Part shown: piece by piece, positions 1 through 17,385 of the stretch | Position numbering within the stretch: position 1 is the stretch's first letter | Layout: each line of letters opens with the position of its first letter | DNA from: Pseudomonadota bacterium | Lineage (GTDB): Bacteria; Bdellovibrionota; FAC87; UBA2466 | NCBI GenBank assembly: GCA_043767805.1 | Contig: JAYUGC010000090.1 | Coordinates: 1-30,766 of the forward strand | DNA: 30,766 nt | Reading direction: 5' to 3' | Translations under genes and position numbers: made by a program | The notes under the pieces: model-generated | What the model was told of the DNA's origin: nothing | What the model saw: only the letters and a program-made list of their open reading frames with translations | The model's database searches: none

Positions 1-1148
1 CCGAAAGACAAAATAAAGGGACCTACCTCATTCGCGTTTTTTAGTCCCTTCAGCCCGAAAAGTACCTCGGCCATCCTATCTTGCTTTTCCGGATAGCTCG
101 GCTGGACGATGTTCATGTGGGGGCCGTGAAACAGATCGTTTGCCGCGACCATTCTTCTGAGAGCGGGGCTCAGAAGCAAAGCATCGCGCAGCGTTTGTTC
201 GGCGCGGGCGTCCAGAACGAGATTCTTTTCCTTTACCTCACGCAGAGCCGCAATGATATCTGGTCCGGACTTAGTCCATTGCGTTTGGGAAAGACTTTTT
301 TCCTTCCAGCCGTAGTCACTCTCGGTATTCCAACGAGCATATTCCCCAAGCTTCAGCAAATTATGGACTCGGTCCGAAATTTCCGTCGTGGGCTCGCTTT
401 CAACAGGGGCCGAAGTCGGACCCTTTCTTTCTCTACTTTCGGTCTTTAGGCGATCTGCCAACGCGTAATCGCGATCGAAATGAGGAAACCAACGCCGGCC
501 CCCATTGGGCTTCTCGAAGTAGTTGGCGTATTTTACGACGTCCTCCGGAATGGGAAATCCGTTCTCCTTCATCTCCTCGATCGTCTGAAAGAACTCCGCG
601 CGCGCCCTCAGGGTGCGGGAAAGCCTTGAGGCAAAATTAATCGCGGTAACTCCAAAAAGCGGAATGCCTATGACGCCGTTGCCGCTTCCATCGTGCATTA
701 GAAGAGCCCCAGACAAAGCCGTGAACCCACCGGAGAATCCAAGGCCCAGGATATTGCGCTTAAAGCCCAGGCTCTCCATGGTGAGAACGCGATCGATCAC
801 TCGTAGGGCAGCGCCCTTCTCGAAAGTTTCCTTCCACTGCGCCTGGTACTCGCGGCCTCCGTCCCAGTGAGCTTCTTGAAAATCGCTGTAGCGGACATTG
901 GAATTTACGATCAAAGCTTGTTGGGCGGCGAGAGGTAGCTGAGAAATCTCCCGCATCCCTCCCTGCAGAAGTACGTCTTTTTCGGCATTCGCGCGCTCGG
1001 TACGGATTCCCAGGAGAATAGTTTGCGCGCGCTCAAGCGTGGTGGCCCGGCGAAGCAGGAGGATCGTTTCTTCGACTGACGCTGGTGTTTCCGCGAACGC
1101 GCGCGCCGACAGCAAAACCAGACAAGAAAATAGAACTATCCTCAACAT
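1..1148 (-). CDS. Hypothetical exported/membrane protein, partial (runs off the left edge)
   Basis: Not in the ORF track because no stop occurs in the window. ATG at 1148 gives MLRIVLFSCLVLLSARAFAETP (signal peptide, AFA site), and the frame reads open where checked down to the window edge (...EVGPFILSF). Two hydrophobic stretches lie mid-protein. Confidence 0.75.
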   Translation of the reverse strand, partial: MLRIVLFSCLVLLSARAFAETPASVEETILLLRRATTLERAQTILLGIRTERANAEKDVLLQGGMREISQLPLAAQQALIVNSNVRYSDFQEAHWDGGREYQAQWKETFEKGAALRVIDRVLTMESLGFKRNILGLGFSGGFTALSGALLMHDGSGNGVIGIPLFGVTAINFASRLSRTLRARAEFFQTIEEMKENGFPIPEDVVKYANYFEKPNGGRRWFPHFDRDYALADRLKTESRERKGPTSAPVESEPTTEISDRVHNLLKLGEYARWNTESDYGWKEKSLSQTQWTKSGPDIIAALREVKEKNLVLDARAEQTLRDALLLSPALRRMVAANDLFHGPHMNIVQPSYPEKQDRMAEVLFGLKGLKNANEVGPFILSF

Positions 1149-4116: not shown

Positions 4117-4210
4117 GGCTCGGCCCTGCGCGACAAGTCCGTGCAAACCCCGTCAGGTCCGGAAGGAAGCAGCGGTAGCATCTGGATGAGTAGACGCAGG
4201 TACCCGAGCC
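4117..4210 (+). ncRNA. ffs: Signal recognition particle RNA (small bacterial 4.5S type)
   Basis: Conserved domain IV TCAGGTCCGGAAGGAAGCAGC, terminal stem GGCTCGG/CCGAGCC, downstream T-tract and canonical position upstream of dnaX. Confidence 0.95.
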
Positions 4211-4233
4211 TTCTTTTTTTGACTTAAGACTTC

Positions 4234-5979
4234 ATGGCTTATCTGGCGATAGCCCGAAAGTGGCGCCCTAGTACCTTCGAGGATTTAGTAGGGCAGACCC
4301 ACGTCGTTCAGACCTTAAAGAACGCGATCACGTACCAGCGTGTTTCCCATGCCTACTTGTTCAGTGGCGCCCGCGGGGTCGGCAAAACTTCCGTCGCGCG
4401 CATCTTCGCGATGGCGCTTCGTTGCCCGAACGTCAAAGACGGCACGCCCTGCAACACCTGCGAAGAGTGCCGCTCCATCATCGAAAGCCGCTCGGTGGAC
4501 GTCGCCGAAATCGACGGCGCTTCCAATAACGGCGTCGAAGCCGTGCGCGGCATCCGCGAGAACGTGGCGTACGCGCCCTCCAGCGGCATCTACAAGATTT
4601 ACATCATCGACGAAGTCCACATGCTTTCCTTAAGCGCGTTCAACGCGCTCTTGAAAACTTTGGAAGAGCCGCCCGAGCACGTGATCTTCATCTTTGCGAC
4701 GACCGAAGTGCAGAAGATCCCGGTCACTATTTTGTCGCGGTGCCAGCGTTTCGAGTTCCGCCGGCTCACCAATCCGCAAATCGTCGCGCGGCTCGAGCAC
4801 ATTCTCAAAGAAGAGAACTTGAAGCTGACCGAAGAAGCGCTGCGCACTCTCGCCGCTTACGGCGATGGCTCGCTTCGCGACTCGCTTTCGCTTCTCGATC
4901 AGGTTTTGTCGTATTACAGCCACGGCGAAGGCAGCCGTTCCGCGCTCGATGAAAAACAAGTCGTGGAAGCCTTGGGACTCAGCGATTCCAGCACGGTAGT
5001 CGCCTTCCTCGGCGCCATTCTCGCCAAAGACACCTCGTCCATCTTGAAAATCGTCGGCGACACCTATCAAAGCGGCGTCGACTTAAAGCGCTTCGCCGAG
5101 CGTTGTCTCGAAGAGCTCCGGCTCTTGTTTCTGCTCGTCGTCGCCCGCGATGGCTCCGAAAAGCTCACGGCGGAAAATCTCGATCTGTCGTCGAGCCGTT
5201 TCGCGGCTATCGAGCAAGTCGCGCAAAAGGCATCCTTGCTGCAAGTCGAGCGCATGTCGCAGATTTTGGGAAAGGCCATTCAGCAGATCGGCTGGAGTAG
5301 CCTGCCTCGTTACGTCATGGAGATGGCCGGCATCCGCATGTCGAAGCTCGACTTACTCGAGCAAATCGAAAAGTCGATGCTCGGTGGGGAGGCGCCCCAG
5401 GCCGCCCCTCAGCCTAAGCTTTCGCCTTCAGCTCCGGTTCCGCAGGCTAAATCTGAGGCTAAGGAGACGATGCCGGCCCCTCTAAGGACGGCTCCCGTTG
5501 CTCAAAGAGAGCAGCCTCCGCCGCCGACAGAAAATTTTCAAAGCAGGCCGTCTGGCCCGCCTCCCGGTCCTCCGCCCATGGGCACTGGCGGAAACAAAAG
5601 CTGGCAGGGTTTCGTCGACACGATCATGAAAAAGCGCCCGCTTCTCGGCGCCATTCTTTGCCACGGCGAGTTTCAATTGAAAGACGTCGCCGGCAGTGGC
5701 CGCATTGCTTCGATCACTTTCCCCGAAGGCAGCTTTTACGAGCGCCAGGCCAAGGAAACCAAAAACCGCGCCGACACCGAAGAGCTCTTGAAAGCTTATT
5801 TCGGCCCCGATGTCCGGCTCGAGCTTTCCTCCGGCAAGGGAGAAGAGATTAAAAGTATCGAGCACAACAAGCAGGCCGAAGCGGCTCAGATCCGTCAGGA
5901 CGCCCTCACCCATCCTACGGTCGTTAAAATGAAAGAGATGCTGGGCGCGGAAGTCATCGACGTTAACATCGAGGTCTAA
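4234..5979 (+). CDS. dnaX: DNA polymerase III subunit gamma/tau
   Basis: ARKWRP, Walker A GARGVGKT, Zn cluster PCNTCEEC, EIDGAS, IIDEVHML, SRC motif and Pro-rich linker. Confidence 0.97.
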   Translation: MAYLAIARKWRPSTFEDLVGQTHVVQTLKNAITYQRVSHAYLFSGARGVGKTSVARIFAMALRCPNVKDGTPCNTCEECRSIIESRSVDVAEIDGASNNGVEAVRGIRENVAYAPSSGIYKIYIIDEVHMLSLSAFNALLKTLEEPPEHVIFIFATTEVQKIPVTILSRCQRFEFRRLTNPQIVARLEHILKEENLKLTEEALRTLAAYGDGSLRDSLSLLDQVLSYYSHGEGSRSALDEKQVVEALGLSDSSTVVAFLGAILAKDTSSILKIVGDTYQSGVDLKRFAERCLEELRLLFLLVVARDGSEKLTAENLDLSSSRFAAIEQVAQKASLLQVERMSQILGKAIQQIGWSSLPRYVMEMAGIRMSKLDLLEQIEKSMLGGEAPQAAPQPKLSPSAPVPQAKSEAKETMPAPLRTAPVAQREQPPPPTENFQSRPSGPPPGPPPMGTGGNKSWQGFVDTIMKKRPLLGAILCHGEFQLKDVAGSGRIASITFPEGSFYERQAKETKNRADTEELLKAYFGPDVRLELSSGKGEEIKSIEHNKQAEAAQIRQDALTHPTVVKMKEMLGAEVIDVNIEV

Positions 5980-5981
5980 TC

Positions 5982-6299
5982 ATGTTCGACATGTTCAAGA
6001 AGGCTCAGGCGATGCGCGAGGAAATGGACCGCGTTCAGAATGAGATGGCCAAAATGACGGTGGAAGCCATGTCGGGCGGCGGCATGGTGAAAGTGACCTG
6101 TAATGGGAAACAAGAAATCCTGTCGGTGACGATCGATCCGGAAGTGCTTAAGCTTAACGATAAGGCGATGCTTCAGGATCTGGTGGTGGCGGGCGTGAAC
6201 TCGGCGATCAAGGCGAGCCAGGAGCTGGCGGCCAAGGAAGTCGCCAAATTGACCGCGGGCCTGGGCCCGCTGGCGGCGATGCTTAAGGGAGGCCAATGA
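5982..6299 (+). CDS. ybaB: YbaB/EbfC nucleoid-associated protein
   Basis: SGGGMVKV and LQDLVVAGVN motifs; lies between dnaX and recR. Confidence 0.95.
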   Translation: MFDMFKKAQAMREEMDRVQNEMAKMTVEAMSGGGMVKVTCNGKQEILSVTIDPEVLKLNDKAMLQDLVVAGVNSAIKASQELAAKEVAKLTAGLGPLAAMLKGGQ

Positions 6300-6916
6300 G
6301 CTTTTCGACCCCAAATCCGAGTAATGAGCCCTCACTTCTGGAAGCGCTCATCGACCAGCTGAAACAGCTTCCGGGCATCGGCAACAAAACCGCGACGCGC
6401 CTGGCCTATTTCGTCCTGCGCCAGCCCGATGAGTACGCCCGCAATTTAGCGACCGCGCTGATCGATGCTCGCGAAAAGCTTCATTTTTGCTCCGAGTGCT
6501 GCAATTTCAGTGAGACGCCTCTGTGTAACCTTTGCGCGAGCTCCGATCGGACGGACTCGATCGTCTGCGTCGTGGAACAGCCATCCGACGTCATCGCTTT
6601 CGAGAAAAGCCGGCAATTCAACGGCAAATACCACGTGCTCCACGGCGCCATTTCTCCTTTGGATGGGCCCGAAGAGAGCAATCTCAAGATTCAGCAGCTA
6701 CAAAACCGCGTTCGCTCCGGAAAGGTGAAGGAAGTCGTGCTCGCCACGAACCCCACCGCCGAGGGTGATACGACGGCGTTGTATGTGGCCAGGCTCATCA
6801 AATACAATGACGTCAAGGTGAGCCGTATCGCTCACGGAATACCTGTGGGCGCCGAGATCGAGTATCTCGACGGGGCGACCTTGGGAAAAGCGCTTCAGAA
6901 CCGCGTTGCGCTATAA
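6296..6916 (+). CDS. recR: Recombination mediator RecR
   Basis: HhH LPGIGNKTA, Zn finger CSEC..CNLC, Toprim CVVE, YHVLHG, LATNPTAEG and SRIAHGIP. Confidence 0.97.
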   Translation: MSFSTPNPSNEPSLLEALIDQLKQLPGIGNKTATRLAYFVLRQPDEYARNLATALIDAREKLHFCSECCNFSETPLCNLCASSDRTDSIVCVVEQPSDVIAFEKSRQFNGKYHVLHGAISPLDGPEESNLKIQQLQNRVRSGKVKEVVLATNPTAEGDTTALYVARLIKYNDVKVSRIAHGIPVGAEIEYLDGATLGKALQNRVAL

Positions 6917-16526: not shown

Positions 16527-16699
16527 TTCCAAAGCCCGGTATCGGGGTTTTCTGCACACTTCCCAAGGCATCTTGACCAAGCCGAAGTCCAAAGGCTAGG
16601 AGAGGGATAATGGGACGGGATGGGAGAGGGAACGAGGTCCGCCAGGCATGGAATATCCCGCAATTAGGATCGGGGCCAGGCGACGAATGCCGGGAAGAG

Positions 16700-16921
16700 C
16701 AGGCCCAGTTGCAGCTTCATACGACTACGCTGGAAACTGCCAAATCCATTCTCGAACTGGCGACATCCGCTAAAACATTGTGGTTTTCTCGTTCGGCCCC
16801 CGAACGACGGGCCTGCTTAGATCGGATACTCTCGAACCCCGTGTTAGATGGCCCAACCGTTCGATATGAACTGAAAAAACCGTTCCTGGCCTTGGCAAGA
16901 ATGAAGGAAACAAAAGAATGG
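16700..16921 (+). pseudogene. C-terminal remnant of a large serine recombinase
   Basis: ETAKSILELATSAKTLW...PERRACLDRILSNPVLDG..V.YELKKPF...KEW reading into the tRNA 3' end; no catalytic N-terminus upstream. The left boundary is approximate. Confidence 0.7.
16910..16921 (+). repeat. 12-bp direct repeat, right copy, overlapping the tRNA CCA
   Basis: ACAAAAGAATGG; the final TGG is the complement of the tRNA CCA end. Confidence 0.75.
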
Positions 16922-16959
16922 CTCCCGGGGAGGGACTCGAACCCCCGACAGGGTGGTTA

Positions 16960-17258
16960 CAGTAAACCCTCATGTTTCCATGAGGTCTGGACTATCTCAT
17001 CACCCTCGACTTTACGTTAGGGTGTCGGGCGCTAATGGGGCTTATTGCTGCGTTACTCATCCCCTAGTCTCTGCACGTTTCCGGCTACATCTACGCTTTG
17101 CCGGACTTCGCTCAGGATTACCCTTCCTATTCGGTTAGGGTTTCCCTGAATTCACCCGATTTTTCAATCCGCCTTTCGGCGGAAAGCTGCATTTGGGCAT
17201 GAAGCTCACGATGGCAGTTGGCGCAAACCAACACTCCATCGAGATTCCTACCCGAGTT
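16960..17258 (-). ncRNA. Group I self-splicing intron (299 nt) at tRNA position 35/36
   Basis: Exon 1 ends in U and the intron ends in G. IGS GCAGCT (17190-17185) pairs with exon GGCTGT through a U-G pair. Motifs: P AATTCAGGGAA, Q AATCCTGAGC, R TGCAGAGACTA, S GAGATAGTCC; P3 TCGGGTG/CGCCCGA; P7 GACTA/TAGTC; P8 CACCCT/AGGGTG; GAAA-capped P2 and P9. Confidence 0.93.
17127..17258 (-). pseudogene. C-terminal remnant of an HNH homing endonuclease inside the intron
   Basis: Frame NSGRNLDGVLVCANCHRELHAQMQLSAERRIEKSGEFRETLTE* carries the CANCHxxxH motif of HNH nuclease C-termini; no N-terminal half. Confidence 0.7.
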
Positions 17259-17385
17259 ACAGCCACCTGCTCTACCAACTGAGCTACCCGGGAACAACCT
17301 TGGACGATTGCCAAATATTACAAACGAAGGGGGATTTGAAAAGGCCTATCTTGGCCCCCCGCATTCTTCCCGGTAAATAATGTGG

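Follow-up and report, generated by a model that had tools for sequence, protein, structure and literature searches.

A group I intron with the stump of a homing-endonuclease gene splits the anticodon of a tRNA-Asn gene

How does a bacterium read its asparagine codons when default tRNA finders report its genome as lacking a tRNA-Asn? This question is raised by a metagenome-derived genome of the Bdellovibrionota (assembly GCA_043767805.1), and the answer probably lies on a single contig, JAYUGC010000090.1, which we analysed along its full 30,766 nucleotides (nt) and refer to as the window. With default settings, ARAGORN made no tRNA call anywhere in the window. With introns allowed, it reported a tRNA-Asn(gtt) at 16919-17293 on the minus strand with a 299-nt intron at 35-36, and the two exons, joined by script, folded in ARAGORN as a normal 76-nt tRNA-Asn(gtt). 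The gene is a tRNA-Asn(GUU) with a group I intron inserted into the anticodon, between U35 and U36, as an earlier note made from the letters of this DNA had proposed; its coordinates were exact, and the call is correct. We consider it very probable that this is a working gene, the only one found for tRNA-Asn in the genome, and that its compact, formerly mobile intron is now without an endonuclease.

Exon 1 ends in GGCUGU, whereas exon 2 starts with UAACCACC and ends in GCCA, with the terminal CCA encoded in the gene. Among eight possible cuts, only that at 35/36, read from the sequence, keeps a 7-nt anticodon loop while leaving a U before the 5' cut and a G as the last intron base, which is what the earlier note had argued. 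One relative (G010) carries an uninterrupted gene, the halves of which are 100% identical to exon 1 and exon 2 and directly abut, so the splice junction is fixed independently of the splice-site rule. ARAGORN in intron mode assigned several genuine Asn introns to Thr(tgt), His(gtg) or Ser and produced many false introns in phage tRNA arrays; because it is unreliable in this respect, we set junctions by the CUGU/...G/UAA rule together with Rfam matches. Eight other introns proposed by this mode in the genome were without group I support and were rejected.

The intron matches the full Rfam group I model (RF00028, Intron_gpI; model positions 1-253) at 16968-17211 on the minus strand, with 107.4 bits against a cut-off of 50 and an E value of 3.1e-27, and it is the only group I match in the whole genome. 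The anatomy given in the earlier note was right in every particular tested, including the U.G pair formed on the guide sequence at the 5' splice site, the terminal G and helices P3, P4, P7, P8 and P9 (Table 1). The R and S consensus of P7 is visible in the Rfam alignment, and the terminal G is preceded by CU, which pairs with AG of J7/9 to form P9.0. We scored a pairing model comprising P1 to P9 and the tRNA on an alignment of 10 copies from relatives, across which 99.3% of the 830 cells are paired. The U35.G104 wobble is kept in all 10 copies and 49 of the 50 P1 cells are paired. Double-sided changes occur at 15 of the 87 pairs, compared with 4.7 +/- 1.4 in column shuffles (none of 500 reached 15) and with one to three when helix partners were slid along the alignment. 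These compensatory changes are located in P2, P5a, P6a, the extra hairpin between P7 and P3, P8, P9 and the T stem of the tRNA.

Folding without constraints agrees with this model. The 375-nt precursor has a minimum free energy (MFE) of -151.7 kcal/mol, against -121.6 +/- 5.8 kcal/mol for 100 shuffles (z -5.2), and the MFE fold independently yields the tRNA arms, P1 to P6, P8, P9 and the extra hairpin. The extra hairpin is an insertion relative to the Rfam model and is present also in tRNA-Ile(CAU) introns of this phylum. Group I introns of the IA subgroup carry P7.1/P7.2 at about the position of this hairpin.

Table 1. Parts of the split tRNA-Asn gene and its intron. All lie on the minus strand; a window coordinate equals 17294 minus the precursor position.
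Feature	Window coordinates	Precursor positions	Strand	Remarks
tRNA-Asn(GUU) gene, whole, split	16919..17293	1-375	-	ARAGORN with introns allowed, and sequence
Exon 1, 35 nt	17293-17259		-	acceptor 5' strand, D arm, anticodon stem 5' strand, C32 U33 G34 U35
Group I intron, 299 nt, without intact open reading frame	17258-16960		-	Rfam RF00028, 107.4 bits, and pair counts
Exon 2, 41 nt	16959-16919		-	U36 A37 A38, anticodon stem 3' strand, variable loop, T arm, acceptor 3' strand, G73, CCA
Internal guide sequence GCAGC	17186..17190		-	pairs with exon G31-U35 (17263-17259) to form P1
P1		31-35 / 104-108	-	GCUGU/GCAGC, U35.G104 wobble at 5' splice site
P1 loop, 68 nt	17191..17258		-	long imperfect hairpin (MFE fold); alignment of relatives
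HNH homing-endonuclease stump, 14 codons, VLVCANCHRELHAQ	17193..17234		-	aligns to 3' end of the G009 open reading frame
P2 hairpin, GAAA loop	17168..17183	111-116 / 121-126	-	compensatory changes in 2 of 6 pairs
P3	17159-17153 with 17031-17025	135-141 / 263-269	-	invariant, 100% paired; encloses P4, P5, P6/P6a
P4	17149-17144 / 17117-17112	145-150 / 177-182	-	invariant, 100% paired
P5	17140-17138 / 17123-17121	154-156 / 171-173	-	invariant, 100% paired
P6/P6a	17111-17075	183-219	-	P6a: compensatory changes in 3 of 5 pairs
P7 pseudoknot	R 17071-17065 with S 16994-16989	223, 225-229 / 300-305	-	6 pairs, invariant, 100% paired
Extra hairpin between P7 and P3 3' strand	17037..17064	230-257	-	insertion relative to Rfam model; compensatory changes in 1 of 4 stem pairs
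P8 hairpin	17002..17023	271-292	-	compensatory changes in 3 of 7 pairs
P9.0	16988-16987 with 16962-16961	306-307 / 332-333	-	invariant, 10 of 10
P9, GAAA loop	16985-16968	309-326	-	compensatory changes in 3 of 7 pairs
Terminal G	16960	334	-	invariant, 10 of 10

The P1 loop of the window intron has 68 nt, compared with 4-13 nt in the shortest relatives as read from the alignment. Its origin is suggested by a genome of the same family (G009), in which a 566-nt intron holds an intact open reading frame (ORF) in the P1 loop. That ORF starts a few bases into the intron, runs through the guide sequence, P2 and P3 and stops in L5, and it encodes the pattern C-x2-C ... HH ... N ... C-x2-C-H, as in HNH nucleases. 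An ORF 57% identical to it occupies the same P1-loop position in a genome from another family of the phylum (G069). The window intron contains no intact endonuclease ORF, only a stump, VLVCANCHRELHAQ, which corresponds to the last 14 codons of the G009 ORF before the guide sequence. Among the 13 copies of the window's lineage, 10 introns measure 243-259 nt, G013, with a shorter stump than that of the window, 281 nt, the window intron 299 nt and that of G009 566 nt.

These comparisons suggest that the intron descends from a mobile form with an HNH homing endonuclease in its P1 loop. The window copy appears to be without an endonuclease of its own, because tblastn with the G009 protein gave a strong match in the genome at the stump only (next E value 0.009), and it is probably no longer mobile by itself, since deletion has left only the last 14 codons of the endonuclease gene. 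Seven of these codons, with eight base differences, differ between the window and G009, and all seven differences are synonymous. Because the divergence is synonymous only, selection at the protein level would seem to have acted on the endonuclease gene during most of the divergence of the two copies, which would date the deletion of the gene as recent. The stump and its synonymous-only divergence are new here, the earlier note having missed them.

To what extent would the organism rely on this gene? ARAGORN predicted 40 tRNAs and one tmRNA on the 204-contig draft assembly, none of them for Asn, the Rfam tRNA model gave 39 matches in the genome, none a further Asn gene, and in a short-word BLAST search of the genome with the joined exons both halves matched at this locus only. 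Since neither a further tRNA-Asn gene nor a further group I intron was found in the assembly, decoding of Asn codons probably requires that the split gene be spliced, and the ribozyme has probably been kept by selection for this function. If this is indeed the only tRNA-Asn gene, the ribozyme would be an obligatory step in decoding two codons. The same annotation error is to be expected in every intron-bearing genome: the earlier note had foreseen that standard annotation would probably miss this tRNA, and the tRNAscan-SE 2.0 paper (PMC8450103) states that the tool was not designed for group I introns.

Splicing, essentiality and past mobility we infer from sequence, and splicing would be expected to follow the group I pathway. 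The precursor would be transcribed as a single RNA, and base pairing of its guide GCAGC to G31-U35 of the exon would create P1, placing the U.G wobble at the cut. P7 would bind a free guanosine, which attacks after U35; the terminal G, held by P9.0, would then occupy the same site, and U35 would attack after the terminal G. Ligation of CUGU to UAAC would restore the 7-nt anticodon loop. P10 is not evident; the exons would probably be aligned by the tRNA's own anticodon stem. tRNA-guanine transglycosylase (TGT) recognises U33-G34-U35. Because these bases are paired in P1 and separated from U36 in the precursor, queuosine could be inserted only after splicing. Two genes of the TGT family are present in the genome (G000:C168:14980-16029 and G000:C148:10036-11091, the second within an open frame of 691 amino acids (aa)).

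Several results weigh against the view that the gene works in this way and that its intron was once mobile. P3, P4, P5, P7 and P9.0 are invariant in the 10 aligned copies and provide no covariation information. The HNH ORFs score 21.3 bits on the Pfam HNH model, just below its cut-off of 21.4. A minus-strand promoter scan upstream of the gene found no sigma-70-like site. Six RNA runs, holding only 5-7% of the sampled words, were available; in the four that were compared with the locus, there was no transcript of this organism showing splicing. Inspection of the first exon 2 bases against the bases 5' of the guide sequence revealed no convincing P10 pairing. Lastly, ARAGORN called no tRNAs for Ile, Trp or Tyr on the 204 contigs either, and a second tRNA-Asn may likewise be unassembled.

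The last of these points is what would favour regarding the split gene as dead or redundant, with a working tRNA-Asn in the unassembled part of the genome and an intron that need not splice. This seems to us very improbable, as both exons are 100% identical to the uninterrupted gene of a relative, the intron helices stay paired through the 15 compensatory changes, and no second full tRNA-Asn match was present in the 10 intron-bearing relatives compared. The missing Ile, Trp and Tyr tRNAs are probably assembly gaps, because no group I match explains them. Only two CAU tRNAs were found by ARAGORN in the genome.

The lack of an evident P10 also bears on whether the intron might need a protein helper, either maturase-like or a chaperone, its long P1-loop stump hampering folding. 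According to the Hausner 2014 review, host factors are needed by some group I introns; the P1 loop, at 68 nt, greatly exceeds that of most relatives, and in the Rfam alignment the guide sequence is paired not with the exon but with a stretch inside the intron, a possible competing helix. In the MFE fold, however, P1 forms with the exon and the stump folds into a separate hairpin of its own, the core is intact and compact like those of self-splicing bacterial tRNA introns, and nothing points to a specific cofactor for an intron without an intact ORF. We regard a required helper as improbable and continue to favour an intron that splices by its own ribozyme.

The RNA data contain sequences that resemble a spliced product. 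In X16 and X19 there are contigs with an exact junction of 16959 to 17259; these were rejected, since their 2-4 mismatches per side and unrelated flanks indicate that they come from the uninterrupted genes of other organisms. Metatranscriptome contigs from three studies (X16, X17 and X19) cover the 3' half of the intron (window 16925-17094) with 90-99% likeness, and two of them also reach the start of exon 2. They would represent precursors of relatives, excised introns or carried-over DNA. The only terminator proposed by the scan for expression signals was P9 itself and was discarded.

We next consider how the intron is distributed, using a sample of 401 genomes of the phylum and defining a close copy as one with E below 1e-70. 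Close copies are present in 13 genomes: 12 of the 34 in the window's family (f1, window included) and one of the four in a second family (f2). In f1, the exon halves abut uninterrupted in 20 of 34 genomes, and two genomes, 83% and 89% complete, gave no match. Both states, intron and uninterrupted gene, occur within each of the genera g1, g5, g10 and g12. Within the window's own genus, the gene of G001 is uninterrupted; it is preceded by about 70 nt that resemble the sequence upstream of the split gene at 75% identity, and its flanks are roughly collinear. One bacterial family thereby spans the whole series from an endonuclease-bearing intron (one genome) through stumps (the window, G013 and perhaps G023) and bare introns (nine genomes) to empty sites (20 genomes).

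This within-family pattern would require no more than one entry of the intron, after which the endonuclease decayed and precise loss occurred repeatedly. Approximately unbiased tests did not reject monophyly of the intron copies of g12 (p 0.13) or g3 (p 0.42), for groups that were chosen post hoc and with the unrelated rows G069 and G199 included. Goddard and Burt are said to have described, in 1999, a mobile-intron cycle of invasion, endonuclease decay, intron loss and reinvasion. As in that life cycle, one family here shows intact endonuclease, stumps, bare introns and empty sites. It differs in that the host gene is the only tRNA-Asn found, which means that the ribozyme could not decay before precise loss of the intron, and in that no reinvasion is shown by the intron tree, the genus-level incongruence of which is not significant.

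Counting any intron at tRNA-Asn 35/36, 17 of the 401 genomes carry one, because a second lineage occupies the same site in four of them (G040 and G103 in family f6, G041 in f12 and G069 in f16). Introns of this second lineage are without the extra hairpin, and their cores are 61-63% identical to that of the window. The hairpin does occur in tRNA-Ile(CAU) introns of about 245 nt at 36/37, found in G199, G201 and G220 (L016, L017 and L018, at about 1424-1748 in each), which are 71-73% identical to the window core from P3 to P7 and share with it the motif UGAG...CAAUAA in the hairpin. These three introns lie at G199:C60, G201:C12 and G220:C1, and 36/37 is the classical Azoarcus-type site. The within-genus polymorphism, the presence of two lineages at one site and the hairpin common to the Ile(CAU) introns are new here.

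Beyond the phylum, we searched species-representative genomes with two HNH proteins using narrow peptide patterns, and the 12 loci found are a lower bound. Besides G009 and G069, these at least 12 HNH loci come from records titled Omnitrophota (three loci), Elusimicrobiaceae, Planctomycetia, Melainabacteria, Berkelbacteria, Peregrinibacteria, Actinobacteria and Sphingobacteriales. A split tRNA was found by ARAGORN in intron mode in 10 of the 12, all of which read as tRNA-Asn 35/36, and a group I core by Rfam in nine. HNH-bearing Asn introns are carried by metagenome-assembled genomes (MAGs) titled Omnitrophota, Elusimicrobiaceae, Planctomycetia, Melainabacteria and Berkelbacteria and by a viral contig (L053-L060 and viral L077). 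They have the same site and the same guide core, GCAG, as the window intron, and a homologous HNH ORF (51-68% identity to that of G009) in the P1 loop, reading into the ribozyme core. They differ from it in that their cores are 55-62% identical to the window's, most are without the extra hairpin and the endonuclease is intact.

G401, a 1.3-Mb MAG titled Actinobacteria, has an ORF-less intron of 239 nt that belongs to the window's lineage, with 75% core identity and the extra hairpin, and its HNH gene adjoins the tRNA-Asn on the opposite strand, outside the intron. At this locus (G401:C27, L061 and L065) the tRNA lies at 781-1095 on the minus strand and the HNH match at 1201-1482 on the plus strand of L061. 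In the class of G401, four of the five genomes have copies like its own, as do 12 of the 301 genomes sampled from its phylum. In trees of the intron core, the f1 and f2 copies form one clade (82/100; 100/100 against outgroups from the phylum of G401), and the f6 and f16 copies group with the Melainabacteria copy (100/97). The deep backbone is without resolution and drew long-branch warnings, and with three groups these unrooted trees do not show which of the two, the Ile introns or the other Asn introns, is the nearer relation of the window's lineage.

The phylum thus appears to hold two separately related intron lineages, each with nearer kin in another phylum. The suggestion of horizontal transfer in the earlier note fares accordingly in two parts: because each lineage has its nearer kin elsewhere, transfer between phyla can be argued, whereas the tests within the family gave p values of 0.13 and 0.42. 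Its proposal that a copy in this genome would widen the host range is weak, given that introns at this site are carried by 17 of 401 genomes of the phylum and by MAGs titled as at least six other groups. By our searches the arrangement is widespread, and what is known of group I introns is unchanged in kind.

With an intron family present in many phyla and in viral contigs, and a genome that is a metagenome bin of 2.8% estimated contamination, the contig could in principle be a binning contaminant and the gene that of another organism, for example a bacterium of the candidate phyla radiation (CPR) or a phage. We give this almost no credence. The closest introns (82-89% core identity) make up a single clade, all from genomes of the window's family or order, the orthologous tRNA of G001 in the same genus has the similar upstream region and roughly collinear flanks described above, and the contig is 30.8 kb long and carries housekeeping genes (for the signal recognition particle (SRP) RNA and recR).

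Relatives of the HNH family are encoded in at least 553 stretches of viral contigs. Of the 80 viral loci kept (L077-L156), 20 were scanned. In 17 of these the HNH gene is surrounded by ordinary tRNA genes, as a free-standing gene in a phage tRNA array; two have a group I core (L077 and L093) and one has neither. The HNH gene lies inside a split tRNA in L077 and directly upstream of a split tRNA-Asn in L093. Phages are a plausible vehicle for the intron. A bolder scheme, which we consider rather unlikely, is that one ribozyme lineage switched both tRNA gene and splice site, its guide changing, in company with an HNH family common in phages, the phages being the likely vehicle; such a switch between Asn and Ile is suggested by the extra hairpin, which the window's lineage shares with the Ile(CAU) introns and which is absent from the other Asn lineage. 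One viral contig, L122, has a manA RNA motif at 744-958 (87.7 bits) in a phage tRNA array beside an HNH homologue.

How does the window intron compare with those already described? The classical settings of bacterial tRNA introns are Leu.3Ug, Arg.5Ug, fMet.2Ug and Ile2.5Ug, all of subgroup IC3, and dedicated software has raised the number of known settings from four to 21 (Williams 2020, 10.1101/2020.01.27.920355). By the naming rule of that paper the window intron would be Asn.4Ug, because it interrupts a tRNA-Asn after the fourth base of the anticodon loop, with U before the cut and G at its end; it fits the definition of that setting and has lost the endonuclease gene. Asn is not mentioned in the main text of the paper; the 17 new settings are given in its Table 1 and Fig. 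3. Group I introns in some tRNAs are mentioned in a CPR genome paper (PMC8172020). Among the titles and abstract openings retrieved on group I introns with tRNA-Asn, none concerned a bacterial tRNA-Asn intron.

Like the classical introns of tRNA-Ile(CAU) in Azoarcus, tRNA-Arg(CCU), tRNA-Leu(UAA) and tRNA-fMet, the window intron is small, lies in the anticodon loop, forms P1 from loop bases and has GAAA loops on P2 and P9, a P9.0 and a terminal G. Unlike them, it is inserted at 35/36, inside the anticodon, rather than at 33/34, 34/35 or 36/37, and it has the extra hairpin between P7 and the P3 3' strand and the endonuclease stump in the P1 loop.

The surroundings of the gene include an ATG-initiated ORF of 136 aa (16610-17020, plus strand) that is antisense to exon 2 and the 3' half of the intron and has no Pfam match. 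It is probably spurious, and annotators might call it instead of the tRNA. The second of the two Rfam matches at gathering level in the window is an SRP RNA (4117-4213, plus strand, 59.1 bits), downstream of which lie a 581-aa ORF (4234-5979, plus strand) and then recR (6296-6916, plus strand), a call based on Pfam domains and the source names of homologues.

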